Shown: one piece after another, positions 6,329 to 42,956 of the stretch
Numbering within the stretch: position 1 is the stretch's first letter
Layout of the letters: every line of letters begins with the position of its first letter
Assembly: GCA_004376265.1 (NCBI GenBank)
Contig: SOKL01000197.1
Span: forward strand, 1,678-65,677
Direction: 5' to 3'
Source: Candidatus Thorarchaeota archaeon
Lineage (GTDB): Archaea; Asgardarchaeota; Thorarchaeia; Thorarchaeales; Thorarchaeaceae
DNA: 64,000 nucleotides
The notes under the pieces: generated by a model
The model's input: the letters and a program-made list of their open reading frames with translations, nothing else
The model's database searches: none
What the model was told of the DNA's origin: nothing
Program-made: the position numbers and the translations under genes

Positions 6329-6331
6329 GAG

Positions 6332-11648: not shown

Positions 11649-11664
11649 GTTCTAAGATTAGAAC
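11649..11664. promoter_or_regulatory. dyad GTTCTAA-GA-TTAGAAC
   Basis: 7-bp perfect arms read directly. It lies about 30-45 nt upstream of the candidate ncRNA 5' stem. The half-site TAGAAC/GTTCTA is shared with the GGAACACGTGTTCTA palindromes. Confidence 0.3.
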
Positions 11665-11692
11665 TATGTACCATTGTTACTATGAATAATAT

Positions 11693-11872: not shown

Positions 11873-11916
11873 TAGCCGTTTATTTTTCTACTACTGTCTA
11901 TGTTACGCTTGAGTAA

Positions 11917-18949: not shown

Positions 18950-20250
18950 TGAACCGGATTGGACTTAAGAAAGAAGAGAAAGCGTTTGAAACGCGGGTTC
19001 CAGTGGTGCCCGATCATGTCAAATTTCTACATGATAAACATGGCATTGAATTTCTACTTGAACCAAGCACTCAACGTGCTTTCACAGAAGACGAGTACCT
19101 CAATGCAAATGCTAGAATTTTGTCACTAAAGGGTAGTAATACATCAGTGGTTTTGGGAATCAAGGAGATGCCCATTGATTTCTTTGAAGAGAATATAGTT
19201 TACATATTCTTCAGTCACACTATCAAAGGACAGGATTACAATATGCCCATGCTCAAGCGAATAATGGACGTAGGAGCCACACTGATTGATTACGAACGTG
19301 TAATTGATGATAAGGGTCGAAGATTGATCTTTTTCGGAAACTGGGCTGGAATGGCTGGTATTTCGGATACATTTCGTATGCTCGGTGATCGTTTAGAATC
19401 ACAGGGTGTAAAACCCAATCCATTTGCTGATATGAAACCGACCTTTGAACTAGGAGGACTTTCAGAACTGAAGGAGGAATTCGCTGCTCTTGGTAGGCGT
19501 ATCAAAGAACAAGGACTTCCCGAAGAGCTCAAACCATTTGTTATCGGTTTTGCTGGTTATGGTAATGTATCAAAAGGTGCTCAAGAGATATTCGACATAC
19601 TTTCACATGAGGTCATTAATCCAGAAGAACTGGAACATATTCCTCCCAAATCAGACTTACTCTACAAATGTGTCTTCAAGGAAGAACATATGGTTGAACC
19701 CCGAAGCTCTTCTGAACAGTTCGACCTTCAAGACTACTACAAGAATGGAGCAGCAAAATACGTTGGTGTATTTCACAAACACGTTCCCTATCTTACCGTA
19801 TTAATGAATTGCATCTACTGGACAGAAAAGTATCCTAGATTGGTAACCAAGGAATTCATCAAGAATCATTGGAAACAAGAATCTCGAAGGCTCCAGATTG
19901 TGGGGGACATCTCTTGCGATGTTGAAGGTGCTATAGAATTCACCTTGGATTGTACAAAAGCAAACAAACCTGCATTCACATACATAATTAATGAGGATCG
20001 AGCCGAGATAGGTGTCGTAGGTGAAGGTCCAGTCGTGATGGCAGTTGACAATCTTCCAAGTGAGCTTCCACGCGAATCATCCACATCTTTCAGTGAAACA
20101 CTTCTTGACTTTATTCCTGCCTTAGCAAATGCAGATTTCACTGTTCAATTCTCCGAGCTTGAACTACCACGGGAGCTCAAAGATGCTGTAATTGTATATC
20201 AAGGTAAACTAACAGAAAACTATCAATATCTCAGTCAATATATTCCATAG
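18949..20250 (+). CDS. lysine-ketoglutarate reductase-type saccharopine dehydrogenase (L-lysine-forming; LKR domain homologue of eukaryotic AASS)
   Basis: Blocks that I recognise from the AASS LKR half: FFSHTIKGQDYNMPML, GNVSKGAQ, IYWTEKYPRLVT, GDISCDVEGAIEF, DNLPSELP and AVIVYQGKLTENYQYL. Confidence 0.8.
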   Translation: MNRIGLKKEEKAFETRVPVVPDHVKFLHDKHGIEFLLEPSTQRAFTEDEYLNANARILSLKGSNTSVVLGIKEMPIDFFEENIVYIFFSHTIKGQDYNMPMLKRIMDVGATLIDYERVIDDKGRRLIFFGNWAGMAGISDTFRMLGDRLESQGVKPNPFADMKPTFELGGLSELKEEFAALGRRIKEQGLPEELKPFVIGFAGYGNVSKGAQEIFDILSHEVINPEELEHIPPKSDLLYKCVFKEEHMVEPRSSSEQFDLQDYYKNGAAKYVGVFHKHVPYLTVLMNCIYWTEKYPRLVTKEFIKNHWKQESRRLQIVGDISCDVEGAIEFTLDCTKANKPAFTYIINEDRAEIGVVGEGPVVMAVDNLPSELPRESSTSFSETLLDFIPALANADFTVQFSELELPRELKDAVIVYQGKLTENYQYLSQYIP

Positions 20251-20261
20251 GAGGACAACGA

Positions 20262-21578
20262 ATGAAGAAAATACTATGTCTGGGTGCAGGTTTAGTAGCC
20301 CGCCCGTACATCCAATATCTATCAGACAATGATTTCCATGTCATTGTTGCTAGCCGTACAAAAAGTAAAGCTGATCGTCTAATTGAGGGATGCAATAATA
20401 CCGAAGCAGTGGCTTTCAATATTGCAGAAGATGATGAACTTCTTGAGGAGCTTACCAAAAAAGCTGACCTCGTTTGCTCTTTACTACCTTACACATATCA
20501 TGTGAAGGCAGCTAAAGTTGCTATAAAACACAAGACACACTTCTGCACTACATCATACATTTCAGATGAAATGAAGGCACTCGAAAGCGAAGCAAAGAAT
20601 GCTGGTATATTGCTCTTGAATGAATGCGGAGTTGACCCTGGAATCGATCATATGAGTGCAATGAAGATTATCGATGAAGTTCATAATAATAAAGGAAAGA
20701 TTGAAAGCTTCACCTCTTTTACGGGAGGTCTTCCGGCTCCTGATTCAAATAACAATCCTTACGGTTACAAATTGTCTTGGAGCCCACGGGGAGTGCTTCT
20801 TGCTGGCCGCAATGATGCACAATTCCTTCGTGATGGAAAAGAAGTCAAAATCCTTGGTTCTGATCTCTTTAGTAATTATGAACTCATGGAAATCCCTGGA
20901 ATGGGTACATTTGAAGGATATCCGAATCGTGATAGTCTCTCCTACATTAACATTTACGAAATATCAGAAACAAAGACAATGCTTCGTGGGACTTTCAGAA
21001 ATATAGGTTGGTGTGGCACATTAGACAAAATTGCAGACTTGGGTCTTCTAGATATAGAAGAACGATCTCTTGAGGAAATGACATATGCCGACCTCATGCG
21101 AGAACTAACATCAAGCAGTGATTCAGATGTAAAGACTGCAGTTGCGAAGGCTTGTGATATTGAATCTAATGATTCGATTATCGAACGTTTGGATTGGTTA
21201 GGCTTGTTTGAAGAAAAGCAGATTCCTTCAGGCACCAAAACAATCTTAGATGCCCTCTGTAATCTCTTTGAAGAAAAGATGCAGTATGCACCTGGAGAGC
21301 GCGATATGATTGTCATGCATCACGAATTCTTAGTACAATATCCAGACAAGAAACAGAAGATCACCTCTACTCTCATCGACTACGGTATTAAGAATGGAAA
21401 CAGTTCCATGTCAAGGACCGTGGCTCTTCCAGTTGCGATAGCCAGTAAGCTGATTCTAAATGGTGAGATTACCTTGACGGGAGTTCACAGACCCATAATA
21501 CCAGAGATCTATGAACTAATTCTCCAGGAACTGGAAACACTCGATATTAAGATGGACGAAAAAACATTTGATTTGTGA
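20262..21578 (+). CDS. saccharopine dehydrogenase (L-glutamate-forming; SDH domain homologue of AASS)
   Basis: Rossmann motif KILCLGAGLVARP, plus GVDPGIDHMSAMKIID, GGLPAP..NNPYGYKLSWSPRGVL, EGYPNRDS and GERDMIVM. Confidence 0.85.
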   Translation: MKKILCLGAGLVARPYIQYLSDNDFHVIVASRTKSKADRLIEGCNNTEAVAFNIAEDDELLEELTKKADLVCSLLPYTYHVKAAKVAIKHKTHFCTTSYISDEMKALESEAKNAGILLLNECGVDPGIDHMSAMKIIDEVHNNKGKIESFTSFTGGLPAPDSNNNPYGYKLSWSPRGVLLAGRNDAQFLRDGKEVKILGSDLFSNYELMEIPGMGTFEGYPNRDSLSYINIYEISETKTMLRGTFRNIGWCGTLDKIADLGLLDIEERSLEEMTYADLMRELTSSSDSDVKTAVAKACDIESNDSIIERLDWLGLFEEKQIPSGTKTILDALCNLFEEKMQYAPGERDMIVMHHEFLVQYPDKKQKITSTLIDYGIKNGNSSMSRTVALPVAIASKLILNGEITLTGVHRPIIPEIYELILQELETLDIKMDEKTFDL

Positions 21579-23785: not shown

Positions 23786-24992
23786 GACAGATAGACTTGA
23801 TATAAAACAAGACTTCGGTATCTATGATCAGAACCAAGATTTAGTCTACTTAGATTCTGCAAGTACTTCTCTTGTACCAAAATCTGCAGTAGCTGCCACA
23901 AGTAGCTTCCTGAACTCTGTCGTAGCATCAGCACGTCGTGGAGCACACAAGTTTGCAATTAGAGGTGGTGCTATTATCGAAGATGTCCGAGGTTCGTTGG
24001 CACGTTTTCTTGATACTGATAAGTCGCAGATATCGTTCCAAAAATCCATTCCTAGTTCTATTGGATCATTGATTTATGGGTATGACTGGAAAGCGTCTAA
24101 TAAGAACAAAATTGTAGTCGCGCAGAGTGAAGAAAATTCCATTTTCGTTACATTACTACGAGCTGCTGAAGTACTTGGTTTGACTGTTGAAATCGTACCC
24201 ATTGATAGTGAAGGGGTCTTATCTCTCGAAAAACTTGATGACCTGATAGATGATGATACCGGTTTTGTAGCAGTTGGTCATGTGATACCAGGATTTGGAT
24301 TATATAATCCGATAGAGGAAGTGACGAAAATTGTTCGGAAAACAGATGCTCTTCTACTTACGGATGCAACTCGATCTGCTGGATTTGATAAATCTATCAC
24401 ATCATTAGGTTCTGATATTCTGGTTTTATCTGCTAATGTGGGTCTGATGGGTCCTCCAGGATTAACCCTTCAATGGATAGACAAATCAGTAGGTGAATCA
24501 CATCGCCCTGGAATATTAGGGGGTTCCGCAGTTTCCGATGTCCAAATTGGATCATTCAAACCAGCTTCACAACCAGACAAATTCGAATCAGGTTACTTGA
24601 ACGTACCTGCAATCGCCGGACTGGGTGCTTCCTTAGAGTATCTCGTCGATCTATATTCACAAGGATTTACTACACACATAGAATCACTATCAAAGTATAT
24701 GTACAAACGACTGGTTGAACTGCCCAATATTGTCATTTATGGTAGACCTGATGAAAACACAACGATATTTGGTTTCAATCTCAATCCTGAAATTGTTAAT
24801 TGTCATGATATCGCCTTGTTTCTTGATGAATCAAATGTGGCTGTCAGAAGTGGTCTCATCTGTGCCCACCCTCTAGTTCAAGCCGTATCAGCTGAGGGTA
24901 TCATCCAAGCATCAATTCATGCATACAACTCACTTACAGATATTGATCATCTGATGGATACACTTGTAATAATATCTAATCAATTACTATAA
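23784..24992 (+). CDS. class-V aminotransferase-fold / cysteine desulfurase-like protein, apparently lacking the PLP lysine
   Basis: YLDSASTSL N-terminus, TDATRSAG Asp block and Cys loop VRSGLICAHP are conserved. Where SufS/IscS have S-x-H-K, this protein reads LSANVGLMGPPG. Confidence 0.6.
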   Translation: MTDRLDIKQDFGIYDQNQDLVYLDSASTSLVPKSAVAATSSFLNSVVASARRGAHKFAIRGGAIIEDVRGSLARFLDTDKSQISFQKSIPSSIGSLIYGYDWKASNKNKIVVAQSEENSIFVTLLRAAEVLGLTVEIVPIDSEGVLSLEKLDDLIDDDTGFVAVGHVIPGFGLYNPIEEVTKIVRKTDALLLTDATRSAGFDKSITSLGSDILVLSANVGLMGPPGLTLQWIDKSVGESHRPGILGGSAVSDVQIGSFKPASQPDKFESGYLNVPAIAGLGASLEYLVDLYSQGFTTHIESLSKYMYKRLVELPNIVIYGRPDENTTIFGFNLNPEIVNCHDIALFLDESNVAVRSGLICAHPLVQAVSAEGIIQASIHAYNSLTDIDHLMDTLVIISNQLL

Positions 24993-25283
24993 TGAGAAAA
25001 CTGGTGGATAGAACAAAAAGTACTGTACGATAACTGCAAGAAGGATTCCACTCAAAACTAATCCCTTTCCTTTCGCAGCATTTACTCCAGTAAACCAGAG
25101 AATTGCACCCACAAGAACAACTACGAAAGCAGAAATATTCCCAATGAAAATCAGAAAATCCCAAATCTCCATGAAATATCCTGCTATCAGATTAACGAAA
25201 TCAGTCAAAGGGCTCAGAAGCGAATGTGACCACATTGGTTTCACACAGTAATTTAGCATGCCGTGTGAATTTAAAGACCTCAA
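24987..25283 (-). CDS. small membrane protein (two hydrophobic helices joined by a short basic loop)
   Basis: ...NISAFVVVLVGAILWFTGVNAAKGKGLVLSGILLAVIVQYFLF. Start uncertain: TTG at 25283 overlapping the glmS stop, or ATG at 25259, 25235 or 25172. Confidence 0.45.
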   Translation of the reverse strand: MRSLNSHGMLNYCVKPMWSHSLLSPLTDFVNLIAGYFMEIWDFLIFIGNISAFVVVLVGAILWFTGVNAAKGKGLVLSGILLAVIVQYFLFYPPVFSL

Positions 25284-28424: not shown

Positions 28425-31400
28425 CTAGGTTATCAAAGCAGAAACCTCGTCATCCATTGTTCTAACAATCAAGTTGCTTGGAGTAATGACACTTTCTTCA
28501 AGATACTCGGATGCTGTCAAAACACAGACAACCTTGGTTGATTTACATATCCTACAAGCCACATCACTATGAAGATGAAGTAGAGTATTTAGCTGCTGCT
28601 GATTTGGGAATATTACGTAGGACGCCCCACTGACACAGAGGTCATAATAACCATGACTTCGGTATATTTTTTTATTATGTTTCTTGAGCGCTATTTCTAT
28701 TACACTCACAGCATTCTCCTTCAGACTTTGTAAGACTGAAGAATTGACTAACCAGAGACCATCATCAAGTTCTACAAACTGTGAAGCTCTCTCAATCCGG
28801 AGAGCAATCAAAACCTCATCAGCCAACAGCTCAGTTAGCGCTCGTTTGCCCTCTTCAATATTCAAGGAGGCCGCTCTGCCTTTGCGAGACTGCAACGCGG
28901 TGGTTTCAATAAATTCTAACAAATCTTCCCATTTGACTTGTCCATTGGAGATATCAACCAAATCCTGAATCAGACCAAACCACAGTCTAATCTGAATAGC
29001 ACGATTTGTAGCTGAACCAACTTCATGCATTGCTCCAATTAGGTCTACTTGCTCTGGAAACTCAGAGTTTTCAGTTAATTGAGTTTGAACTTTAGAATCA
29101 GCTACACTACTCAGACTTTCAATAACAGAATCAAGAGACTTTGGAAATGCAGAAACGACACAGACATCATTAAACTCTTCAGAGGAATCCATCAACTCTC
29201 TTAATTTTGCTGCAGCGATACTTCCTCTGACAACTACAAATAATTCTCTGACACCATTTTGTAATCTGTTCATCTGATCCCTTATCTTATCTAAAATTGA
29301 CCCCATTGACGATGCTCGTAGATGTTCGGGTATGATTACTATCGCCTTGTCTTCTAAGACAATATCTGGAAACTCAGGAACATCCGATGATGAAACAACA
29401 CATTCCATTGCTAGCTTGTCATATATGTACTCAATAATAACACATCTGACTGCATCTAATGCTTTTCCTGGAAGAGTGAATACAAATCCTCCAGGAACAA
29501 GTGCCAAAGCTTCTCTATCTACGGAACCTAATGAAACGAGATTTCGAATCACCTCTGATATATCATCATCCACATTTCTGGGATCCAATGTTGATAGAAG
29601 ATTTCGAATCTCTTCCTCTGTCGACCACCTTTCTGCGGCCAAAAAAGCTACTACATGACTTCCCAATCTATCTATCCTGTTGAACACAAGTGTTTGAGCC
29701 TCAGGTGTTTGGATTGGTTCAGAATCCTCTGACTCGATGTTATCTGTAAGAATAGTATCTGGCTTATCCTCATTCGAAATAGAATCATCAATTTGAGGTA
29801 CTGGTACACGAACTGGCTGTGATTCAACATCAATGGAGTCTAGAAACGGTTTTGTAGCAATCTCAAAGGTTTCAGTATGTGGAATGCTCATCAATGCTCT
29901 ACCACGTTTCAGAACCCGTAGATAGCGTTCCTGTTCTTCATTTAATGATAGAAACCTTCCACCAATCTGGCTGTCATAAGGTAATCGGAATACAACTTTT
30001 GTAGAAGTGTTTGCTAAGATATTTGAGGAAATATTAGGGCGTGTTGATACTACAATGACACCCTGCCCAGTTGCTCGCTGCAACATTACCATGGATTCAC
30101 CAGTTGTTACATCTGCAGCTGAATGCCTTGTGTAACTTTCAGGTACAAGATTACTTGCTTCTTCTAGAACTACTACATGATGCAGACCTTCTGATATTCC
30201 TCGTTTCATAGAACTATCAAAGATGCGTTTAGCCACAAGATTGTAAAATAATCGGGCTGCATCCATCCCTCCAGTTCTTGCAATATAACTCAAATCAAGG
30301 ATAACACGTCTATCAAGAAGAGCCGAAATCCCGATAGCCTTTGGACCTCCTTTTAGTATGGACCCCAGAGGTTCCCGAGTCAAGATTTCAAGACGATTAA
30401 GAAGTGCATCTCGAGTCATATTTCCAATTCGGTCTTTATTCGCAAGATCTGAAATAGCATCAGTTAGGGCCTGCACAGAGTTATTATCCAATGACTCAAC
30501 AACTTGTATCACAGATTCCCTGAGCAGCTTTTCCATTGCTGGAGAAAGTTCTGAGGAATCACCTCGTTCATTCAGGAGTTCTCTCAAAATAATAAAGGTA
30601 GAATGAGCACAGTTTTTATCACCCTTCATTTCAGGATCAATGAGATTAATAGTAAATGAAGTGTCAGCACCCGGTTTGAGAACCAACACGTCGGAATCAT
30701 CATTCCTGACAAGTCCAAGATACTCTGAACCTTTTATATCAAATATCCACCAAGGAACACTTGTATTCTCACTTAATTGAGCCATGAGGTGCTTAACGAG
30801 TGTAGTTTTACCTGTCCCAGTGGCTCCTAAGACTGCAACATGTTCTCTCAACCAATCGACTTTCAAACCAACGCTGGACAATCGACGACCACCAAAGACT
30901 GTTTCCGCGATAACTAAATCATTATCCGTTAACTCCTTAGTAGGCACGGGAAACACCGGAGCTTTTGTTGGAGTGATAATTGGAAGCTGTTGAATTGGAG
31001 TATTGACAAAAGATGTTAGTTTAGTAATATGCATACTTTGGTGTTGCAAGTGCCTTCTAGTAAGCAATCTATATGCTGTGCGTTTCACAATCTTCTTGGT
31101 ATTCAATTTGATGAAATCACTTCCACCCCAAATGGAATATACGAGCCCAATAATTCCATCCAAATCATCCCCAATTCTTTCATCAGAGAGAGATTTAATC
31201 ATAAAATACACGGTGGTGTCAAACCAACCTATTGAATCTTGAATCTCTTCATATCGAGTAAGAAGTTTCTTCTTAGCTGCATAATCTTGCAGTGACTCCT
31301 CTTTTCTTCTCTCTTTTGCCTGAATGTTCTTCCATTGACCTTCAAGTGTCCGTTTTTCTTTACCAGGTTTTGCTGTTGAAAAAACACAAGTCATACTTGT

Positions 31401-32258
31401 ATTGTATCTTTGTCTAAGTGCTGTAGAGATAAAAGTTCCAACTTGAGATGCGTCTAGCGATGGAGATGTTCGGGGTGTTCCTTGCAACACAATCAATGCA
31501 GAAGACCCAATGTTCCTCGTAGGGCTCAGTTTACCAATATCGATTATTCCATTGATATGACTAAGAGCCACCTCCTGCAAGTTTTCATCATCGAGCAGAT
31601 TGAGTTCTACATTGTTCAAGGATGCAAGTAGAATTGCTTCAGTTCTAGTTGCTTCTCTTCTGAGAATCTCTTGGATTTGTCCAACATCTTGTCCCGTCGT
31701 AGTAATGAAGATACGGAGATAAGGTTCCCCTTCAGATACACCTGCTTCAAAAGCCATACTTACTGATTTAGTCATTCCTGCACGCATTGCTAGTAGCATA
31801 CTTTCGTTATACTTTGGTTTACCATCCTCATCAAGATATACAGATCCTGATACAGAAACGATGTCTAAACAACAGGTCCCAATCACATAATCATCCAACT
31901 GAACCAATAACACATTATTCTCTACAGAAACAACAGGTTTTTGGAACTGTATTTTCTGAATCGATAGTAGAGAACCTGCAAGGATGGGTATTACACAAAT
32001 TATCACTTCGATGAACATCTTCTGAGGTATCTGAGGTTGTGTGGTTAATCCAACTAGAGGTAGCAGATATACGAATAGTAAATAGATTCCAGCAATAATG
32101 ATTCCACTCATCCAACTCGTCCTTATCCAGAACCAAGTGTTACTTTGTTGTGAATAAGAAACTGGTTTTGTTTCATCTGCACACGGCAAGCTGAATGATT
32201 CCTCCTTGTCTGAGAGTAAGTGCCTCTGGAACCAAACCATGGTACTAGAGCTAAGCAT
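28425..32258 (-). CDS. giant membrane-anchored FtsK/HerA/VirD4-superfamily ATPase with ~480-aa uncharacterised C-terminal extension
   Basis: Two N-terminal TM helices (WMSGIIIAGIYLLFVYLLPLVGL, FIEVIICVIPILAGSLLSI). Walker A VAVLGATGTGKTTLV followed by IFDIKGSEY, Walker B HHVVVLEEASNL, and GVIVVSTRPNISSNILANTSTKVVFRL. The C-terminal part has winged-helix-like segments. Confidence 0.65.
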   Translation of the reverse strand: MLSSSTMVWFQRHLLSDKEESFSLPCADETKPVSYSQQSNTWFWIRTSWMSGIIIAGIYLLFVYLLPLVGLTTQPQIPQKMFIEVIICVIPILAGSLLSIQKIQFQKPVVSVENNVLLVQLDDYVIGTCCLDIVSVSGSVYLDEDGKPKYNESMLLAMRAGMTKSVSMAFEAGVSEGEPYLRIFITTTGQDVGQIQEILRREATRTEAILLASLNNVELNLLDDENLQEVALSHINGIIDIGKLSPTRNIGSSALIVLQGTPRTSPSLDASQVGTFISTALRQRYNTSMTCVFSTAKPGKEKRTLEGQWKNIQAKERRKEESLQDYAAKKKLLTRYEEIQDSIGWFDTTVYFMIKSLSDERIGDDLDGIIGLVYSIWGGSDFIKLNTKKIVKRTAYRLLTRRHLQHQSMHITKLTSFVNTPIQQLPIITPTKAPVFPVPTKELTDNDLVIAETVFGGRRLSSVGLKVDWLREHVAVLGATGTGKTTLVKHLMAQLSENTSVPWWIFDIKGSEYLGLVRNDDSDVLVLKPGADTSFTINLIDPEMKGDKNCAHSTFIILRELLNERGDSSELSPAMEKLLRESVIQVVESLDNNSVQALTDAISDLANKDRIGNMTRDALLNRLEILTREPLGSILKGGPKAIGISALLDRRVILDLSYIARTGGMDAARLFYNLVAKRIFDSSMKRGISEGLHHVVVLEEASNLVPESYTRHSAADVTTGESMVMLQRATGQGVIVVSTRPNISSNILANTSTKVVFRLPYDSQIGGRFLSLNEEQERYLRVLKRGRALMSIPHTETFEIATKPFLDSIDVESQPVRVPVPQIDDSISNEDKPDTILTDNIESEDSEPIQTPEAQTLVFNRIDRLGSHVVAFLAAERWSTEEEIRNLLSTLDPRNVDDDISEVIRNLVSLGSVDREALALVPGGFVFTLPGKALDAVRCVIIEYIYDKLAMECVVSSSDVPEFPDIVLEDKAIVIIPEHLRASSMGSILDKIRDQMNRLQNGVRELFVVVRGSIAAAKLRELMDSSEEFNDVCVVSAFPKSLDSVIESLSSVADSKVQTQLTENSEFPEQVDLIGAMHEVGSATNRAIQIRLWFGLIQDLVDISNGQVKWEDLLEFIETTALQSRKGRAASLNIEEGKRALTELLADEVLIALRIERASQFVELDDGLWLVNSSVLQSLKENAVSVIEIALKKHNKKIYRSHGYYDLCVSGASYVIFPNQQQLNTLLHLHSDVACRICKSTKVVCVLTASEYLEESVITPSNLIVRTMDDEVSALIT

Positions 32259-32352
32259 ATGAACACCCCCAAATTACACAATAGAAATCTGTACATTGTA
32301 GGAGAATAAAAACCCAAAATCAGACTGATTAGCTGAGTTTATCCCTAGGGGG

Positions 32353-34323
32353 GTGTCCGGTATCAAGAAGTCTTACTGGTTTCCAGCTATACTTGCGATT
32401 TTCATCTCATTTTCCTTAGTCACATTCAGTTCGGATAACGTGACAGCTGAAGATGAAATTCAGGTAATCCGTGGTAGCACAATATCAATAACAATAACAA
32501 TACTTCAGAACGGTAGCTATGGAACTCCTGTCCAAAATCAGCCAATCTATTACTTTGATCAGACAGCTAATCTACTACTTGGTTTTGCTGTATCTAATCA
32601 GGATGGCATTTGCTCACTTGATTGGAAAATACCATTAAGCCAAACCCTTGGACTAGTTACCATTAATGCAACATTCTATGGTAACGAATCTCTTTCATTA
32701 TCACCCTCATATCAACGTGTATCCCTTTTGGTGCTTTCACAAACTAGTATAGAAGTTGACCAGATGCCTGGAATACTTGCTCCAGGAGACTTGTTATCTT
32801 TCAATGCCCATTTAGTGGATGATTCAAATATTTCAATCCGAAATGCTACACTTACAGTTTTCAAGGACTCAATACCCCTTACAACCGTAATTACAAATAC
32901 CTCAGGTTATGCACTTTTTGAGATTGAATGTAATAACACATGGATTTCACTTGGTGGAAACAATATTCGTATCTTATACAACCAAAATCTATTCAATTTT
33001 CTAAATGGTACTGAGTTTACATTCAATGTAGAAATAGCGCAAATTTCCACATTTCTAAATTTTGACTCACCATATCCGAACGAGATAGAGCTCAGTGCTG
33101 TTGTCGACTTGTACATGACATTATCCGAAGGAAATACTACTCTTCCCGGTGAAATCCTCGAAGTTACACTTGATGAATATCATCTAAGTTTCATTATCTC
33201 AAATAGTTCAGGAAAAGCTAATTTCTACACGACTATTGATGAGAGATTTTCACTGGGTACACATTCTTTGAAGATACACTATAACGGTACAGATCGATAC
33301 TTTGAATCCACACTAGAGGCAATTGTTACTATAACCAGTCCAGTAACAATAACAGTAGAGGTCCCCGAATTTGCTGAAATTGGTTCGAACTTACCTGTTC
33401 AGATTACAATAACTGATCTATTGAATAGATATATTCCAAACTCCACTTTTTCGCTATATGATATGACCTCTGATCAGAATTTTTCGGGCTTCATTGAGGA
33501 TACAATTATTGATTTTCAATATAGTCTTCAAGGACCCGCAGGAACGCATACTCTCGCCATTGAAATCCGTGAGAACCTATTCATCTCCGAAAACAGATTT
33601 ACCATGAACTTTACTGCTTGGTCCCGTCCTGAAATCATACTTATTAATACTGGAGTAAATCATTATGCTTCCCCAAACCAAGAACTCACTTTTGAGGTCA
33701 GGATGATAGATTGGATTGGAAACTGTTCATTAAGAGATCTCCAGCTACTTATCGATAACGAAAGCTATACTTCAGGTACCACAGATGATAAAGGACTCGC
33801 AATCTTCTTTTTTTCATCACCTGTAAATGAAGCACTATACAACATATCAATAATCTATAATGGAAACAGTAGTAAATACGAACTTGCGACTAAGCATGAT
33901 TACAATCTTTTTGTCACTACATTTATGCCAATAATAATCGAACTGGATTCGTATGAAATAGTTGCACCACTACATGAACTAGCAGTGCAGCTTACGGTGA
34001 GAGGTCTAAATGGTTCGCGACTAAATGGAGTAATTGTGAACTTAGAATGGCTTTCTTTTGATTCAACCACCGAGAGTTCCAAAGGAGGGCTCATTCTCCT
34101 TCATCTCACAATTCCAACTGTAGGTGGCAATTACACACTATACTTTGAGTCAGAACCAACACGTTTCATAGATTCTTCAAGTGGTTCAATATTGATAGAA
34201 ATAACATCGAATGATATTATGTCAATAGAAGGTGTTGGTATCACAGGTATGATTTTCGCTTTAGTAGCATCAATTGGAATTGTATCAATTCCAATAATCA
34301 GGCGTCGAAATCTGTTAGGGTGA
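32353..34323 (+). CDS. surface-exposed beta-rich repeat protein, N-terminal signal/anchor and C-terminal TM anchor, many N-x-S/T sequons
   Basis: GTG start. Signal-like WFPAILAIFISFSLVTFSS. Repeated Ig-like-looking segments and more than 15 N-x-S/T sequons. The C-terminal helix GITGMIFALVASIGIVSIPII is followed by RRRN. Confidence 0.6.
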   Translation: MSGIKKSYWFPAILAIFISFSLVTFSSDNVTAEDEIQVIRGSTISITITILQNGSYGTPVQNQPIYYFDQTANLLLGFAVSNQDGICSLDWKIPLSQTLGLVTINATFYGNESLSLSPSYQRVSLLVLSQTSIEVDQMPGILAPGDLLSFNAHLVDDSNISIRNATLTVFKDSIPLTTVITNTSGYALFEIECNNTWISLGGNNIRILYNQNLFNFLNGTEFTFNVEIAQISTFLNFDSPYPNEIELSAVVDLYMTLSEGNTTLPGEILEVTLDEYHLSFIISNSSGKANFYTTIDERFSLGTHSLKIHYNGTDRYFESTLEAIVTITSPVTITVEVPEFAEIGSNLPVQITITDLLNRYIPNSTFSLYDMTSDQNFSGFIEDTIIDFQYSLQGPAGTHTLAIEIRENLFISENRFTMNFTAWSRPEIILINTGVNHYASPNQELTFEVRMIDWIGNCSLRDLQLLIDNESYTSGTTDDKGLAIFFFSSPVNEALYNISIIYNGNSSKYELATKHDYNLFVTTFMPIIIELDSYEIVAPLHELAVQLTVRGLNGSRLNGVIVNLEWLSFDSTTESSKGGLILLHLTIPTVGGNYTLYFESEPTRFIDSSSGSILIEITSNDIMSIEGVGITGMIFALVASIGIVSIPIIRRRNLLG

Positions 34324-34330
34324 AAAGAAG

Positions 34331-34439
34331 TGGTGCTCCGGCCGGGATTCGAACCCGGGTCGAGGGGTCGAGAACCCCCCATGCTGGGCCGGACTACATT
34401 CGGTACTGCTGTAGGATTTCTACAACGTTCTACCGGAGC
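34331..34439 (-). tRNA. tRNA-Glu (anticodon CUC) with about 31-nt intron near position 9/10 (non-canonical), CCA encoded
   Basis: Reverse strand reads GCTCCGG-TA-[GAACGTTGTAGAAATCCTACAGCAGTACCGA]-ATGT-AGTCCGGCCCA-GCAT-G-GGGGG-TTCTCGA-CCCCT-CGAC-CCGGG-TTCGAAT-CCCGG-CCGGAGC-A-CCA. Confidence 0.75.
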
Positions 34440-34525
34440 CTGGAATGGTATGCCAGTCCGGAGCGCGAGAGCTCTGTCCAGAGCTTCACAAATAAGCCTT
34501 TCCCCAATAAGAGAATCAGTTTCTA

Positions 34526-34735
34526 TTATGGTGTACCAAATAACTGAGTTATGCCATTCCAACTATCCTGTAATAGCTGAAGTAATCCTTCTATGACATC
34601 TTGTGCCCACCCTGTGGCTTGGAGAATGACTGCAATTACAATAGAAACTGTTACTACAGCAAGACCAAGGAGAAGACTTTCTTCTACTAATGGTCCACCT
34701 TTTTCATTTCGAATCAAACCTGCATCCTCTGTCAT
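34526..34735 (-). CDS. small single-TM protein with Flp/type-IV-pilin-like N-terminus
   Basis: MTEDAGLIRNEKG-GPLVEESLLLGLAVVTVSIVIAVIL. A charged leader ends in G. A Glu at +5 and a hydrophobic helix follow, as in the G/xxxxE(Y/E) motif of Flp prepilins. It lies 48 nt downstream of the secretion ATPase. Confidence 0.5.
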   Translation of the reverse strand: MTEDAGLIRNEKGGPLVEESLLLGLAVVTVSIVIAVILQATGWAQDVIEGLLQLLQDSWNGITQLFGTP

Positions 34736-34783
34736 AGAGTTCTGTTTGCTTTCAACCTTTTAAAGCCCCCAAACGAATCAGGT

Positions 34784-36481
34784 TCATTGAGATTCATTTC
34801 CGATTACATCTAGTGGATGACCATTCGACCACAATCGTGCACTTAGTATATCTAAGTCTGATCGATATTGCTCGTTAGTCATCATATCCATTATATTTCT
34901 GAGAGCTGGTTCATGACTCTCAATCCCATAATCCCTTGCATATATCAAAAATGCTCCATCATGAGCCCAATCGCGTTGTCCCTCTTTGAAATCATAAACA
35001 ACATTCAGTCCCGAGAATTGTAAAAGACCGTCCACTTTTTTCCTCCTAGTTTCAACTATTTCTTTTACCCTACGTTTAGACTCTCCTGGTTTTGGTCTTT
35101 CAAGAGTAACTATCAAGTCCATCATTGCGAGATTAGAATCTTGGATTCCATGACTAAGTTTCCATCTAGAAATAAGACTGGATGATGAGTCACTGTGGCA
35201 AGTCTGTAGAGAACGGAGACCAGCTGCAATCGCTTGAAAAAGAGCATTACTATGTTCAGCTGTTTGTATCTCTCCAAGAATGAGATAATCTGGTGATCTA
35301 TGTAGACTCTTGATGATTTCACTACTTTTATCCGATTTTCCCAACTGCTCATCCACAGGGTCTACTCTAAACCGAACTTGATGATGGTTCTTTTGATTTC
35401 TACTTTCCACAGCATCTTCAATGTAGATCTTCCTCCACCAGCGAGGTGTTGTCATATCCAGTGCATTCAGAAGCGTGGTCTTTCCAGTGCCTGGTCCTCC
35501 CGTTATGGTAATATTGAACCGACATGTAACTGATAGAAGTAGGATTGCAGCCACCTCGGGAGTGATTGTGTTATTATCAATTAAATCAGTAATTGAAAAC
35601 GGGCGGTTACGTGCACGCCGAATCTCAAGATGTAGCCCATCTGGACTGAGTGGAGGGATGCTAACGGAGAAACGTAGAGATGCTCCGAGAACCTGTAAAT
35701 CCATCTTCAACGAAGGATTGCTTCTATCTAAGTGAAGATTGCTCTCTGCACGGATTAATGTGATAATCTTGGGCACATCACTCTCAATAAAAGTGAAATT
35801 AGTGTCACATCTACCTAATTTCTGATGGTCAAAATATACATTAGCACCGGGATAATCAAGGTATAATTCCTCCACTAAATCATCTAGTAAGATCGGTATG
35901 AGAGATCCAAAAACACTTCTGCGTTGGGCAATGATTTCGGAAAGAGTAGTCCTTGTGGTTTGGTTTATTTCAGGAATGAGTTTCAGAATGTGTTTAGAAA
36001 TAATGTCAGTAATCATCTCAAGTCGCTGAGTTATTCCCTTTCTTACTGAAAACATACCACTACTATTCTCGAATTGTGTTGTAGTATCACTCAACTCTTC
36101 GACCAAAGAATACTCCAGGGAAGTCCTCACAATGGGAATGGAATGATGCTGTATCTGGTTCCTTGATTTCTTAAACAGAGTCAGATAAGGTCCGACTTTG
36201 TAAATCTCAAGAATATCGCCCAAATCTCTGAACAGTGGACAATTTATCCCTATGAACACAGTTTCCCATCCGTCAACATACCATGGAGGGTATGTTTGCT
36301 GCAATTCCTTATGCTCATTGAAATGAAGCAAACCTCGTTCTGCTTCAATCAATACTGTTCGAATGTTCTCCGTTGAAGAATTCTCACTCTGTCCTAATTT
36401 GCGACAACCAACATCCATCCTTTCAGGACAAGCTTCACATCTTCCAACAGAACATCGAATTAAACGAGTTTCTGAATCCAT
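34784..36481 (-). CDS. type II/IV secretion-system ATPase (FlaI/TadA/VirB11-PilB superfamily)
   Basis: Walker A ITITGGPGTGKTTLLNAL, then KIYIEDAVE and SPDYLILGEIQTAEHSNALFQAIAAGLRSLQTCH. A Cys-rich N-terminus (CSVGRCEACP) is also present. Confidence 0.8.
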   Translation of the reverse strand: MDSETRLIRCSVGRCEACPERMDVGCRKLGQSENSSTENIRTVLIEAERGLLHFNEHKELQQTYPPWYVDGWETVFIGINCPLFRDLGDILEIYKVGPYLTLFKKSRNQIQHHSIPIVRTSLEYSLVEELSDTTTQFENSSGMFSVRKGITQRLEMITDIISKHILKLIPEINQTTRTTLSEIIAQRRSVFGSLIPILLDDLVEELYLDYPGANVYFDHQKLGRCDTNFTFIESDVPKIITLIRAESNLHLDRSNPSLKMDLQVLGASLRFSVSIPPLSPDGLHLEIRRARNRPFSITDLIDNNTITPEVAAILLLSVTCRFNITITGGPGTGKTTLLNALDMTTPRWWRKIYIEDAVESRNQKNHHQVRFRVDPVDEQLGKSDKSSEIIKSLHRSPDYLILGEIQTAEHSNALFQAIAAGLRSLQTCHSDSSSSLISRWKLSHGIQDSNLAMMDLIVTLERPKPGESKRRVKEIVETRRKKVDGLLQFSGLNVVYDFKEGQRDWAHDGAFLIYARDYGIESHEPALRNIMDMMTNEQYRSDLDILSARLWSNGHPLDVIGNESQ

Positions 36482-38217: not shown

Positions 38218-39903
38218 ATGACAGGTTTCTGGTGTAGATCAGTGAAACGAAGGATACGAGCACTAATCCCAATATCGTTATTGCTCATTACATGTTTAGC
38301 AGTGCCTGTTTCTGCATTCTACTTTGATTTTCAGTATTTTGAAACTGACAAATTAGTATACGAAGTTGGCGAAACAATAAACATGGTTGCCAAATTAATT
38401 GCAGACTTTAGCAATCAGGGATGGAGTTACATTTCATTTGCTGTGGTGACAGACTTAGGTCCAGCGTTCGCAGATGAATATTTCATACCTCCCTCACCTG
38501 ACGTTCGCTACTTGAACTCATCATACACAATTCTACCTGAACACACATCCCCTAATGCCACTGGAGTCCAAGCGTTTGTTCTTTTCAATATCGAGATATT
38601 CAATACTGTTTCACAGGGAGCAGGGGACAATATCGAAATCACCATAGTCAGAGGACATCTTGATGTGATTCCACAAACACCTCTAATAGTTCAGTCTGAG
38701 ATTGACATGACGCTTTCGTTCAAGGTCGAAAGCATACATAACAGCAGCGTGGTTTACGCTGACGAAATATTGTCTTTACAAGTGGAGGATTTGAATTCTC
38801 AGACAGTTCTTGATACAAATTTGTTAACAACTACTGAAGGATTAATTTCCTTAAATTGGAATGATTCTCTAGGTCCGCCAGGATCATACAATCTAACACT
38901 GGTAAGTAACGGAAATGATGATTTTCTACCCTTTTCGGAATCATTTCAAGTAACTGTACTCCCTGCTTTGTCCAATTTATCCATTGTTTCTGCACCAATA
39001 TTCATCCATTGTCAATCACCCGATGGGAGTCATATTGAACAAGCTGATATTATTGTTGAACATATTGATCTCAATCTCAATTCTATCAATGATAGTACAA
39101 TTATTTGGGAAACAAGTTTTGGAAATGGTTCGATGACAAATCAAGGTAACGGACAATATTCTACAACTATTCCTTTTGAGACTAGTCCAGGAACCCATTT
39201 GGTTAATATCACTGCATCAAATCCTCAATTTCAGATAATTAGGGAAACAACCGTTATCAATGTTCTTCCTAATTCCTTACAATTCTCTCCGTTGCAACCT
39301 TCTTGGAATGTCACAAGAGGTCAAAATGTTACTATTGAGTTTCTAATTGAATTCGAACTCGATTGGAATCAAACGGTACAAGTTCAGTTCATTGATGGAG
39401 ATAATGAGTTCTCACTAGAATCAGAGATTTATCATGGAATATCAAGTAATCTTGTAATTTCAACATCATCTAATTATTCCATTGGCCCTCATACTGTGAA
39501 TGTTTCAACTAATAGTGAATATTATTCATTCCAAAATATATCTCAGTTTATTTTAGACGTTATAGGAATAATGAATCTAAATATATCAATCAACTCAGCA
39601 TTCTATAGAGAATCACTAAACTTCACCCTCACACTCCTCGATGATAACACTGAAACGATTGATTTTATTGACATTTTCGTATTTTACGACAATGAGGTCA
39701 TACCTTTCACAGTCATCAATTACGTCAATTCAAATATTGTACATTCTATTTCACTACCTCTGTGGCTTTCTCATGGTCTTCACAATATCTCATTTCGAGT
39801 GGAAAGTGACTACTTTCATAATATCTACCAAACATTGGTTGTCCAAGTCTGGATGAAAACAGATATTTCAATCGTGATTGTGATGAGTAACGGGGGAGAT
39901 TAA
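38218..39903 (+). CDS. secreted/surface beta-rich protein with many N-x-S/T sequons
   Basis: Signal-like IRALIPISLLLITCLAVPVSA. Composition and sequon density resemble 32353..34323. Confidence 0.55.
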   Translation: MTGFWCRSVKRRIRALIPISLLLITCLAVPVSAFYFDFQYFETDKLVYEVGETINMVAKLIADFSNQGWSYISFAVVTDLGPAFADEYFIPPSPDVRYLNSSYTILPEHTSPNATGVQAFVLFNIEIFNTVSQGAGDNIEITIVRGHLDVIPQTPLIVQSEIDMTLSFKVESIHNSSVVYADEILSLQVEDLNSQTVLDTNLLTTTEGLISLNWNDSLGPPGSYNLTLVSNGNDDFLPFSESFQVTVLPALSNLSIVSAPIFIHCQSPDGSHIEQADIIVEHIDLNLNSINDSTIIWETSFGNGSMTNQGNGQYSTTIPFETSPGTHLVNITASNPQFQIIRETTVINVLPNSLQFSPLQPSWNVTRGQNVTIEFLIEFELDWNQTVQVQFIDGDNEFSLESEIYHGISSNLVISTSSNYSIGPHTVNVSTNSEYYSFQNISQFILDVIGIMNLNISINSAFYRESLNFTLTLLDDNTETIDFIDIFVFYDNEVIPFTVINYVNSNIVHSISLPLWLSHGLHNISFRVESDYFHNIYQTLVVQVWMKTDISIVIVMSNGGD

Positions 39904-41233: not shown

Positions 41234-41444
41234 ATACTTTTCGTTAGATTTAAGGGAAGATAGACAATTATAATATTGGCGAGTGATGATTGCTATGACC
41301 CCAATGAGTCAGAAATGACGATGATATGGATCTTGAGTTAGGAGCTCGCCATTACTTTCGGCAACCTCCCCTTTGATTATCCATTTAAGCGTACACTCCG
41401 AAAATCCTTTTAAGGTGCATAAACAGAGCTGTTTCTCGACTGTC

Positions 41445-42662
41445 ATGCCTCACGACTATGTTGAAGATGAACTCAGTAGACGTAGCGTATTCAAATCAGA
41501 ACAGTTCTTATCTATCGACTATGTACCAGAGAGTCTTCCTCACAGACAAAATGAAATCAGGGCTCTTGTTCAGAGCTTTAAGACTTTAATCAGCTCCCCA
41601 GGTCAAACAAGCCACAAATTCATCATTGAAGGTCCTGTGGGAACTGGAAAGACTGCGGTTGTAAAACGCTTCTCTGAACAGATGATTCAAGCTGCAAAGA
41701 GGCGTAATATCAGGCTTCACAGTATTCACATTAACTGTCGTGTTAACAAGACAGCATACCTTGTATTCCTTCGAGCGTTAAGAGAATTCGTACCAAAATT
41801 TCCCAGACGTGGACATTCCCCTGATGAGCTTCTTCAAATGCTAGTTGAAGTCCTCGATGAAGAGGATCGATACCTCTTGTTGATTCTTGACGAACTTGAT
41901 TATTTCATCAAACAAAGAGGCGCTGACATACTCTATGACCTAACTAGGATAATGGATGATAGGTTGAATGCAACACAGCGTCTCTCAATCATCGGAATAG
42001 GTCGTGAAATTCCCCTTGATGAAAAAATTCTTGATGCTAGCACACTCAGTACACTCCAACGTAATGTTCTACGATTTTCAAGGTACAATCATGATGCACT
42101 TTCAGACATTCTACGAGACCGTGTAGATATGGCCTTTGAGAAAAAGACTGTTATGGATGAAACAATCCAAGTTATCTGTGATATTGCATCTGGGCATGGT
42201 GATGCACGCTATGCAATTGAGCTCCTATGGCGTGCTGGAAAAAGTGCTGATAGTGACCAAGCAAATGTTGTAATACCCGATTATGCACGTCGTGCTAAAG
42301 CTGACACTCATCCTGAGCTTAGAAAGGAGATTTTTGCATCACTGCCTATGCAACATCAACTTTTGTTGTTGGCAGTAGCAAGGCAACTTAGGGATATTCG
42401 TAGTGCGTATGTCACAATGGGCGAAGTTGAAGAAATGTATCGCTTAATATGTGAAGAATATTATGAAGAACCACGAGCACATACCCAGATTTGGGAATGG
42501 GTCCAAGATCTTCATTCTCATGGGATAATAGATGCAAAGAAATCAAGCACAGGTCAGAGAGGTCAGACTACTCTAATCGGGTTCTCTGATGTTCCAGCTG
42601 AGATGTTAGAACAGTTCCTCTCAGGGTTACTCGATACCTCCAAGGAGGTTGTGAGAAAATAG
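41445..42662 (+). CDS. orc1: Orc1/Cdc6 replication initiator
   Basis: The start is set at MPHDYVEDEL... YVPESLPHRQNEI, Walker A GPVGTGKT, Walker B LLILDELD and the sensor GDARYAIELL are present, with a C-terminal winged helix. Confidence 0.9.
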   Translation: MPHDYVEDELSRRSVFKSEQFLSIDYVPESLPHRQNEIRALVQSFKTLISSPGQTSHKFIIEGPVGTGKTAVVKRFSEQMIQAAKRRNIRLHSIHINCRVNKTAYLVFLRALREFVPKFPRRGHSPDELLQMLVEVLDEEDRYLLLILDELDYFIKQRGADILYDLTRIMDDRLNATQRLSIIGIGREIPLDEKILDASTLSTLQRNVLRFSRYNHDALSDILRDRVDMAFEKKTVMDETIQVICDIASGHGDARYAIELLWRAGKSADSDQANVVIPDYARRAKADTHPELRKEIFASLPMQHQLLLLAVARQLRDIRSAYVTMGEVEEMYRLICEEYYEEPRAHTQIWEWVQDLHSHGIIDAKKSSTGQRGQTTLIGFSDVPAEMLEQFLSGLLDTSKEVVRK

Positions 42663-42956
42663 ATGGACGATGAAAGCTCATCTAAAGTTGCCATTGAGGA
42701 TATATTCTCATCAAGAGGCAGAATCAAGATACTCAAGACACTAGCTGGAGCTGATCATAGTGAGCTACCTATCTCTGAGCTCTGTAGAAAAGTGAACCTC
42801 AACCACAGTTCAACAAAATCACATCTTAAAGTGTTGATCAGATCTGGCCTAATTGAAGAGAAGACATATGGATCAAGAATCAAAATCTACCGATACAAGA
42901 TCGAAGACCTAAGAGCACGGTCTCTCCGGAGTCTGTTCAATTTATGGGACTCATAA
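42663..42956 (+). CDS. ArsR-like winged-helix protein, translationally abutting orc1
   Basis: The ATG immediately follows the orc1 TAG. GRIKILKTLAGADHSELPISELCRKVNLNHSSTKSHLKVLIRSGLIEEK. Confidence 0.65.
   Translation: MDDESSSKVAIEDIFSSRGRIKILKTLAGADHSELPISELCRKVNLNHSSTKSHLKVLIRSGLIEEKTYGSRIKIYRYKIEDLRARSLRSLFNLWDS

Follow-up and report, generated by a model that had tools for sequence, protein, structure and literature searches.

A conserved Thorarchaeota locus encoding a giant VirB4/CedD-like membrane ATPase and a candidate reduced Flp-type pilus module

What kind of machine does an archaeal chromosome encode when a giant membrane-anchored ATPase, adhesin-like surface proteins, a secretion ATPase and a small pilin-like protein stand side by side? 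This question was raised by a 64-kb stretch of the chromosome of a Candidatus Thorarchaeota archaeon (Asgard archaea, contig SOKL01000197.1), called the window below. An earlier note on this DNA had likened the combination to conjugation or Ced/Ted-type DNA-transfer machinery. All of its open reading frames (ORFs) and its tRNA were found again in place in the ORF list, the translations and a tRNA scan, but three conserved neighbours had been left out: a TFIIB (TFB) paralogue, a 121-aa protein and a protein of about 80 aa with two transmembrane (TM) segments. The answer proposed here has two parts. The giant 1277-aa ATPase is probably a membrane translocase of a VirB4/CedD-like kind. The locus as a whole is tentatively read as a chromosomal DNA translocase resembling type IV secretion systems (T4SS) as well as Ced, joined by a reduced Flp-pilus module for DNA exchange, a reading that falls a little short of an even chance.

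The assignment of the giant protein starts from its N-terminal part. Two hydrophobic stretches in the hydropathy profile bear out the two N-terminal TM helices described before, and residues W49, Y59, Y64, P67 and E84 of this anchor are conserved among the orthologues. The domain of about 300 aa that follows had been called unknown; it is present as described, but its fold is recognisable. An AlphaFold2 model of aa 105-460 was obtained with a pLDDT of 79 and a pTM of 0.77 and compared with the Protein Data Bank (PDB) by Foldseek. The 14 best matches all came from the R388 T4SS and were TrwK/VirB4 (E from 1e-8 to 1e-7, TMq 0.48-0.56), and the first match outside VirB4 was to an unrelated fold (E 4e-4, TM 0.26). 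As modelled, the domain is like the VirB4 N-terminal domain and resembles TrwK/VirB4 only. Because of this fold, and because the curated family that scores best on the ATPase domain is CedD, the large ATPase was grouped structurally with the T4SS/Ced-type motors. The anchor region would then take the position that VirB3 holds in VirB3-VirB4 fusions.

The motor domain is of the HerA clade. The motifs LGATGTGKTT, FDIKGSEY, VVLEEASN and VSTRPN, quoted in the earlier note, all occur in the translation, and over 33 and over 13 diverse orthologues no change is seen in Walker A (G478-T486), in the Walker B-like motif VVLEE (696-700) or in R740. This module had been described as DUF87/HerA/VirD4-type. 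The first part of that description stands, with a Pfam DUF87/HerA match over aa 462-629 (E 5e-13); the VirD4 likeness does not, since the VirD4-type TrwB_AAD_bind match (20.9 bits) is limited to the P-loop region at aa 461-524 and the N-domain is VirB4-like. A VirD4/TraG coupling protein was dismissed on these two grounds, and the term coupling-protein-like ATPase was dropped with it. The best NCBIfam model for the ATPase is CedD (NF053655; aa 445-796, E 2e-11), with 43.3 bits against a cut-off of 600. Other matches were to HerA_Thermprot (E 1.5e-9, 36.9 bits against a cut-off of 800), HerA_antiphage (E 6.7e-8, below its cut-off), VirB4_CagE (TIGR00929; aa 473-608 only, E 2e-5, 23 bits against a cut-off of 643) and CedB (17 bits). 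In PADLOC, mad8 (E 4e-16) and several HerA models matched the ATPase domain only. A sequence search of the PDB returned HerA/DUF87 chains only, with no VirB4 chain among them, and Pfam FtsK_SpoIIIE did not match the giant protein.

Beyond the motor, winged-helix-like segments had been noticed in the C-terminus, and these are borne out by structure prediction. The AlphaFold2 model of aa 800-1277 (pLDDT 70) consists of a disordered linker followed by a 420-aa tail of two units, each a winged helix with an alpha/beta domain. Foldseek matched the tail to XPF/Hef/FANCM-FAAP24 nuclease-fold domains (E 2e-4; 1j22 with an rmsd of 4.7 over 135 columns) and also to winged helices of RTP/ORC/Cdc6. Cys1208, Cys1235, Cys1238 and Cys1245, in the second alpha/beta domain, are conserved. 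No conserved nuclease catalytic triad was found in the nuclease-fold domains in the orthologue alignment; from their sequences these domains are therefore more likely binders than enzymes. By sequence, the extension is detectable mainly in the Thorarchaeota family of about 1250 aa. An internal duplication of the two units was considered and rejected, as the hhalign comparison was not significant. The earlier impression that the architecture of this protein was undescribed agrees with the literature search, in which no paper was found on this Asgard locus or on such an architecture.

Close parallels lie in Sulfolobales. CedB and CedD are built of HerA-clade ATPase domains and N-domains resembling that of VirB4; in CedD, which DNA import requires, a TM segment is added (PMC11868833). 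The Thorarchaeota protein shares with them the TM segments, the VirB4-related N-domain, the HerA-clade ATPase and a chromosomal location. It differs from CedD in that its N-domain spans the whole VirB4 N-terminal domain instead of a part and in the added winged-helix and nuclease-fold tail. Ced acts together with CedA/CedA1, and its DNA import is inducible by DNA damage; here no gene for a CedA-like protein (6-7 TM) lies nearby. VirB4/TrwK of the bacterial T4SS and TedB of the Ted system of Thermoproteales belong to the same ATPase superfamily, and it is TrwK/VirB4 specifically that the N-domain fold matches. Unlike VirB4 and TedB, the Asgard protein carries a C-terminal extension of a DNA-binding type, and its match to the VirB4 model is not significant. 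The Asgard locus also differs from a T4SS in having no equivalents of VirB6, VirB8 or VirB10, no relaxase and no VirD4, and in not lying on a mobile element. The comparison with Ced/Ted-type machinery thus held for the motor (VirB4 N-domain, CedD) and failed for the channel, no VirB6/CedA-like protein having been found in the window. In FtsK, SpoIIIE and Streptomyces TraB, the motor is followed by a C-terminal winged helix that reads specific DNA motifs. The giant protein works like these in its layout of membrane anchor, FtsK-HerA-superfamily motor, linker and C-terminal winged helix, but its clade is HerA/VirB4-like and not FtsK, and its VirB4-type N-domain comes in addition. In its way of working the locus recalls Ced/Ted combined with Ups/Tad, while by sequence it belongs to none of the VirB4, CedD, HerA and VirD4 families. 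The coordinates of all features are collected in Table 1.

Table 1. Features of the locus, with coordinates in the window, strand and the basis of each assignment.
Feature	Coordinates	Strand	Basis
Two-TM hairpin protein of about 80 aa (TM1, loop xVNxxKGKG, TM2)	24987..25283	-	HMM match; start probably near 25235
Giant membrane-anchored VirB4/CedD-like ATPase, 1277 aa	28425..32258	-	ORF and translation; full-length orthologues at 39-99% identity
C-terminal extension of giant ATPase, aa 856-1277, two winged helix + alpha/beta units with linker between	28428..29693	-	AlphaFold2 and Foldseek
HerA-clade (FtsK-HerA superfamily) P-loop ATPase domain, aa 461-800	29859..30878	-	Pfam/NCBIfam
VirB4-type N-terminal domain, aa 106-460	30879..31943	-	AlphaFold2 model and Foldseek
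Membrane anchor at the N-terminus, a pair of hydrophobic helices, about aa 45-105	31944..32126	-	Kyte-Doolittle scan
Divergent intergenic (promoter) region between giant ATPase and surface-protein genes, 94 bp	32259..32352		Read from sequence
Ig-like (Big/MG-type) surface glycoprotein, 656 aa	32353..34323	+	Signal sequence, 21 sequons, C-terminal TM anchor
tRNA-Glu(CUC) between the two blocks	34331..34406	-	ARAGORN; partial Rfam match
Flp-like prepilin candidate (p69), 69 aa	34526..34735	-	Leader, G/A at -1, G+1 P L V E+5 E, TM helix
T2SSE/TadA/FlaI-type secretion ATPase with N-terminal Cys4, 565 aa	34784..36481	-	Pfam T2SSE E 1.4e-19
Divergent TFIIB/TFB paralogue (Zn ribbon and cyclin fold), 347 aa	36556..37599	-	Pfam TFIIB E 1.2e-5, Zn_Ribbon_TF
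Conserved soluble protein (p121), 121 aa	37753..38118	-	First gene of the run p121-TFB-T2SSE-p69
Secreted protein, 561 aa, 18 sequons	38218..39903	+	99-bp divergent gap to the p121-TFB-T2SSE-p69 run; weak PKD match

A scan of one genome per GTDB species gave 78 loci with the giant ATPase, which is full-length in them at 39-78% identity. Most are labelled Thorarchaeota and the others 'uncultured archaeon', 'archaeon', 'Promethearchaeota' and, once, 'Hermodarchaeota'. The synteny comparison took in 88 loci. All the genes described before have full-length orthologues in dozens of genomes, which makes the observation more than a chance one. The usual order, kept in nearly all of the 78 Thorarchaeota-type loci, runs from POR through the 561-aa secreted protein, p121, the TFB paralogue, T2SSE, p69 and (where present) the tRNA-Glu to the surface protein on the opposite strand, and on through the giant ATPase, an AA kinase, S10, GlmS, the 80-aa protein and an aminotransferase. 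The giant ATPase is a core single-copy gene of Thorarchaeota. Neither an integrase nor an att-like repeat by the tRNA-Glu was found at the locus, its base composition is unremarkable, and two scans of viral contigs gave no relative of the giant protein. In the PLSDB plasmid scan only generic bacterial DUF87 ATPase-domain matches were obtained, and no relative on an archaeal plasmid. A mobile element, provirus or plasmid was ruled out by the lack of an integrase, the ordinary composition and the lack of viral-contig relatives. The cluster is core chromosomal with housekeeping flanks and not a conjugative element, so that the likeness to conjugation drawn before was given up at this level.

A constant partner of the giant gene is its divergent neighbour. 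The gap between the two genes is exactly the 94 bp reported before, and their divergent arrangement recurs in almost every Thorarchaeota locus and also in the distant L093, where a surface-protein homologue (E 2e-16) is divergently paired with an ATPase 27% identical to the giant protein. The surface-protein gene adjoins the giant gene in 82 of the 88 loci, which is every Thorarchaeota locus with enough flank, through all rearrangements. The 656-aa protein has hydrophobic segments at both ends and 21 N-x-S/T sequons, where more than 15 had been claimed; a homologue in locus L096 gives strong Big_3_5/Big_1 matches. The 561-aa protein, correctly pointed out before as a second sequon-rich secreted protein, is conserved in 70 of the 88 loci. 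Despite the rearrangements in L045, L072 and L076, the tRNA-Glu is still found beside the surface-protein gene there; several other loci lack it. In one Thorarchaeota lineage (L001 and L002, 8536-9808) an IS605-family OrfB/TnpB (Cas12f-like) gene is inserted between the surface-protein and giant ATPase genes. In L096 (96-3583), and also in L100, the surface-protein homologue is directly followed by a 492-aa protein with eight TM segments and a weak T2SSF (platform) match. Both are encoded 6-8 kb upstream of the VirB4-like gene; a platform-like gene therefore exists in that lineage.

A second small neighbour was recognised through more distant loci. In L007, L094-L100 and L089 (Ranarchaeia), a gene for a two-TM hairpin protein of about 80 aa lies directly upstream of the ATPase. 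An HMM of these small upstream genes matched the window ORF just downstream of GlmS, 3 kb from the giant ATPase, at E 2.6e-16, and detected hairpin orthologues in nearly all Thorarchaeota loci at 0.7-3.5 kb from the giant gene. The hairpin protein is probably a partner of the VirB4-like ATPase, with a VirB2/TrbC-like topology; by analogy, the order of small two-TM protein, TM segment and ATPase in other Asgard lineages would mirror virB2-virB3-virB4. For homology to VirB2 itself the matches stayed sub-threshold at best: Pfam TrbC matched 3 of 16 members below threshold (best E 0.005), and hhalign against A. tumefaciens VirB2 was negative.

On the other side of the tRNA-Glu, the genes for p121, the TFB paralogue, T2SSE and p69 follow one another closely on one strand, divergent from the 561-aa secreted protein gene, with the TFB paralogue gene 74 bp upstream of that of the 565-aa T2SSE protein. 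The latter had been described as a FlaI/TadA/VirB11-type ATPase. TadA and FlaI stood and VirB11 was weakened, the protein being far closer to TadA/CpaF/FlaI/GspE by NCBIfam (TadA-type 8.6e-28, FlaI 8e-22, VirB11 3.9e-16) and by its nearest solved structures, archaeal GspE (2oap, E 2e-24) and CpaF (E 8e-20), with FlaI also matched. Its Walker A/B motifs and Asp and His boxes are conserved and intact, and an N-terminal C-x4-C-x2-C-x7-C motif (C10, C15, C18, C26) is conserved as well. A protein 100% identical to it is found in a Thorarchaeota metagenome-assembled genome. The best matches of the window point to a Thorarchaeota (Asgard) chromosome, and the TFIIB and Cdc6 genes, together with tRNAs that have inserts of intron size, agree with an archaeon. 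All its relatives carry the precomputed PF27713 assignment, and a literature search on PF27713/UCP018868 found nothing. For p121, present in 72 of the 88 loci, family searches gave no match; in L008 and L078 it sits between the T2SSE and surface-protein genes.

The 69-aa protein has the Flp/type IV-pilin-like N-terminus seen before, an EKG-GPLVEE motif followed by a single TM segment, and its C-terminus is an amphipathic helix. The leader varies in length and sequence, and from G14 onwards the protein hardly changes across more than 60 Thorarchaeota species; G or A at -1 and Glu at +5 make up the Flp/type IV prepilin pattern. For homology to Flp the matches stayed sub-threshold. No Pfam pilin family reached threshold on p69, Flp1_like matched the Helarchaeota homologue only (E 0.047), and with Caulobacter PilA the hhalign alignment was limited to the cleavage motif, which fell in register, at E 0.003 and a probability of 10%. 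The likeness to Tad/Flp (type IVc) and archaeal type IV pili consists of the TadA/CpaF/FlaI/GspE-like ATPase and the small Flp-like protein with its amphipathic helix. The locus differs from these in that the window holds no platform or peptidase, that no pilin family reaches threshold, and in the Cys4 N-terminus of the ATPase and the TFB paralogue in the operon.

The presence of a TFB paralogue, which NCBIfam TFIIB matches with 62.6 bits against a cut-off of 384, has precedents. TFIIB homologues sit in archaeal T4P-like operons, and a Thermoproteales T4P-like subclade, 4D, called enigmatic, consists of an arCOG05558 ATPase and an arCOG05559 TFIIB homologue (Makarova et al. 2016, PMC4858521). 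As far as its description goes, subclade 4D resembles the module found here in three respects: the N-terminus of the ATPase is rich in Cys, the ATPase shares its operon with a TFIIB homologue and a membrane protein, and a classical pilin set is lacking. The membrane protein differs, having 69 aa, one TM segment and an Flp-like character here and 4-5 TM segments there, and secreted proteins are encoded alongside in the Thorarchaeota locus. The pair of secretion ATPase and TFB paralogue thus recurs here and in Thermoproteales and points to an unexplained link between a membrane ATPase and basal transcription. In Sulfolobales, TFB3 activates ups and ced, as PMC6101594 outlines, and its control of both is also given in PMC9905601. 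Ced there works with a type IV pilus (Ups) under control of this TFB paralogue, and a parallel is proposed for the present locus from its genes; unlike TFB3, the paralogue here is full-length (Zn ribbon and cyclin) and encoded within the cluster.

Platform and channel proteins were looked for by hydropathy in every ORF of 120 aa or more across the window. Besides the ATPase itself, no ORF with at least three TM segments was found; there is therefore no TadB/C/FlaJ-type platform and no prepilin peptidase in the window, and what had been claimed for 24-40 kb holds for the whole 64 kb. Neither was found among the called genes of the syntenic loci looked up, and a standard TadBC/FlaJ gene stands beside the secretion ATPase in no Thorarchaeota locus, including one on a complete chromosome (L034). 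The locus is indeed not that of a standard archaeal type IV pilus. In L030, L031, L034 and L036, p121 and the TFB paralogue are separated by an inserted gene, at about 3207-4248 (-), for a protein of 309-333 aa with 8-11 TM segments. As a candidate for the missing platform it was rejected, having no Pfam match, the look of a GT-C-type protein and a presence in only four loci. Being GT-C glycosyltransferase-like, it could glycosylate the surface proteins, or it could be an unrelated insertion.

The model proposed here starts from what was observed: the genes present, the folds of their domains, ATPase motifs that are intact, and the conservation and surroundings of the genes. The conserved chromosomal Asgard neighbourhood would encode two membrane machines of the FtsK-HerA superfamily. 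The first would be a T4SS/Ced-like translocase, in which the giant protein is held in the membrane by its two N-terminal helices and its HerA-clade ATPase presumably forms a hexameric ring as a VirB4/CedD-type motor. The winged-helix and nuclease-fold tail would bind DNA and feed the motor ring, as in FtsK, SpoIIIE and TraB. The glycosylated Ig-like adhesin would be the extracytoplasmic partner of the giant ATPase, and the two-TM hairpin protein probably its partner in the membrane. The second machine would be a reduced Tad/Flp-type pilus module, co-transcribed with the TFB paralogue and presumably under its control. Here p69 is predicted to be cleaved after the G or A at -1, leaving Glu at +5 and a mature start at G14, and the Cys4 TadA/FlaI-type ATPase would pull it from the membrane into a short fibre. 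Together they may form a domesticated DNA-exchange apparatus, in which pilus and adhesins contact cells and the VirB4-like motor moves DNA across the membrane, parallel to Ups, Ced and TFB3 of Sulfolobales. The translocation of DNA and its direction, like the cooperation of the two modules, are predictions of this model. A bolder version is rather doubtful: an Asgard-wide, domesticated chromosomal descendant of a T4SS for mating-type DNA exchange, with one polypeptide uniting an anchor like VirB3, a motor like VirB4 and DNA-binding domains that read sequence, and with a hairpin of VirB2 topology, an Ig-like adhesin, a platform-less Flp pilus and a dedicated TFB paralogue.

Several observations weigh against the DNA-exchange model. 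By sequence, family membership of the motor is weak (43 bits against 600 for CedD, 23 against 643 for VirB4), and the nuclease-fold domains of the tail are probably inactive, as the catalytic triad is not conserved. The Flp-likeness of p69 rests on motif, topology and sub-threshold matches, the VirB2-likeness of the hairpin protein on topology and sub-threshold matches. A VirB6/CedA/TedA-like channel, a T2SSF/TadC/FlaJ platform and a prepilin peptidase are all absent from the window, and such genes are not consistently found within 10 kb on either side in the 78 Thorarchaeota loci. The link between the giant ATPase and the T2SSE module comes from Thorarchaeota and a single Helarchaeota contig.

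The last point leads to the best-surviving alternative, in which two unrelated modules are held together by lineage synteny and there is no joint DNA-transfer apparatus. T2SSE, p69 and TFB would then be a reduced pilus that stands by itself, a pilus-like system or the non-pilus 'ATPase + TFIIB' system of Makarova et al., and the VirB4-like ATPase, the adhesin and the two-TM protein would act otherwise at the membrane. The housekeeping flanks in Thorarchaeota (AA kinase, S10, GlmS, POR) are as syntenic as the candidate partners, and adjacency there is therefore weak evidence. Inversion breakpoints in L045 and L076 fall where p69 meets the surface-protein gene, and in L072 p69 and T2SSE stand apart. 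In Baldr- and Ranarchaeia and in three unassigned lineages (L090, L093 and L094-L100), the ATPase stands without T2SSE, TFB or p69 at a distance of up to 10 kb. A cis-element common to both divergent promoter regions was sought and discarded, no conserved 7- or 8-mer being found in both (76 and 68 loci), and the ATPase + TFIIB pair of Thermoproteales subclade 4D stands alone (PMC4858521). Against a chance neighbourhood speaks the Helarchaeota contig L091 (527 kb), which carries all five gene families within 14 kb in an order different from that of Thorarchaeota. Its TFB paralogue (42% identity) has moved from T2SSE to a position 75 bp upstream of the VirB4-like gene, and it further carries a p69 homologue, an anchored sequon-rich protein and a T2SSE ATPase (42% identity). 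The Thorarchaeota and Helarchaeota regions have unrelated blocks (Robl/Arf GTPase, HTH) in common too, and part of their likeness may be ancestral gene order. The surface-protein family is tied both to the VirB4-like gene (window, L093) and to the T2SSF-like gene (L096), and in L008 and L078 the T2SSE, surface-protein and giant genes stay adjacent despite rearranged flanks. The genes are thus co-localised in relatives, in the Thorarchaeota loci and in L091, and the reading as two separate modules is considered possible, though on balance unlikely.

A different alternative concerns the motor and takes up the distribution of its relatives. An exhaustive HMMER search confined the full-length architecture to a few 50%-identity clusters, and those traced to a genome or contig all lie in Thorarchaeota-type synteny; a homology search with a profile of 19 sequences returned only five proteins. 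Many proteins of 800-1440 aa from Hel-, Njord-, Baldr-, Ran- and Heimdallarchaeota match the N-domain and ATPase only, at about 30% identity. Those inspected all begin with TM helices and end in variable winged-helix-like tails, and their contexts are housekeeping ones, often close to replication genes. Cdc6 lies near the ATPase in the window, L008 and L089, GINS in L008 and L092, PCNA and primase in L092 and OapC in L094.

This setting is in line with an FtsK/SpoIIIE-like chromosome pump for segregation or division, with winged helices that read the cell's own chromosome instead of serving transfer between cells. The FtsK-like layout and the status of the gene as a single-copy core gene across the whole class would fit it, as would the repeated nearness of replication genes in five lineages, although information-processing genes cluster in archaeal genomes anyway. 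The N-domain is of the VirB4 type, known from envelope-spanning secretion machines, the constant partners are of an extracellular or membrane type (adhesin-like glycoprotein, two-TM hairpin), and Pfam FtsK_SpoIIIE has no match. A chromosome pump is accordingly regarded as improbable, and the VirB4/CedD-like translocase is retained.

Some further observations concern these relatives and their surroundings. The Cdc6/Orc1 gene of the window (41373-42956, +) is followed by a small HTH gene and lies about 9 kb from the giant ATPase; ORB-like origin repeats adjoining cdc6 were looked for and none was convincing. Replication genes (Cdc6, GINS, RFC, PCNA/primase, OapC) recur close to the VirB4-like gene in five Asgard lineages. 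A 336-aa protein of several winged-helix (MarR/HTH_45-like) repeats is encoded in L007 (4903-5913, -) and L094-L100, its gene always convergent with the 1080-aa VirB4-like gene of that lineage and followed by a gene for an OapC-like origin-associated protein. The metagenome contig L104 has two paralogous TM-bearing DUF87 ATPases (4623-7106 and 10001-11959) 3 kb apart, which recalls the CedB/CedD pair.

It may further be asked whether the VirB4-like ATPase moves DNA at all. In bacterial T4SS, VirB4 drives pilus biogenesis, and the Asgard protein might likewise power protein assembly or secretion, polymerising the hairpin protein into a conjugative-type pilus or displaying the Ig-like glycoprotein, with winged helices that serve regulation or protein binding. 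That the partner genes encode membrane and surface proteins, and that the nuclease-fold domains have no conserved catalytic triad, would agree with such a role. Two winged helices and XPF/Hef-like folds are typical of nucleic-acid binders, however, CedD as the closest curated family acts in DNA import, and the VirB2-like assignment of the hairpin is sub-threshold, so that a protein motor appears very unlikely. The HerA of a HerA-NurA repair system is a soluble helicase with a HAS barrel and a RecA-like domain. A plain repair helicase of the HerA type, or a defence ATPase built on HerA and directed against phages, to which the Pfam, HerA_Thermprot, HerA_antiphage and PADLOC matches might point, is extremely improbable and largely refuted by matches far below cut-off and confined to the P-loop or ATPase domain, by the TM anchor and VirB4-type N-domain, by the absence of NurA, Mre11, Rad50, SIR2 or any other effector as a neighbour in any locus table, and by the place of the gene in the core genome, its synteny being conserved in 78 loci where defence islands are patchy.

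To our knowledge, Ced/Ted-type DNA exchange systems are so far known only from Thermoproteota. A VirB4/CedD-like motor in the core genome of Thorarchaeota, with relatives across Asgard lineages, would bring domesticated T4SS-type machinery to the archaeal group nearest to eukaryotes, and the locus offers a concrete, testable candidate for DNA exchange or handling in slow-growing, syntrophic Asgard archaea that depend on cell contact. A VirB4-like motor fused to winged-helix and nuclease-fold domains is an architecture found nowhere else in the searchable literature. Should the modules be unrelated, there are still three uncharacterised and highly conserved Asgard families here, namely those of the giant ATPase, of the Flp-like p69 and of the hairpin protein of 80 aa.

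Three minor observations were made outside these genes. At 59287-61737 (+) of the window stands an operon for three proteins, one Roadblock/LC7-like (315 aa), one of 306 aa and one an Arf-like small GTPase. In L008 and in the Helarchaeota contig L091 these three genes come to within only 3-5 kb of the VirB4-like gene, and an Arf-like GTPase is also near it in L093. In the Ranarchaeia contig L089, an intein is present in the RNA polymerase A'' gene (19123-21561). Finally, Rfam tRNA matches of 107-119 nt at 473-591 (-) and 700-806 (-) of the window, for which ARAGORN made no call, are probably intron-containing archaeal tRNA genes.

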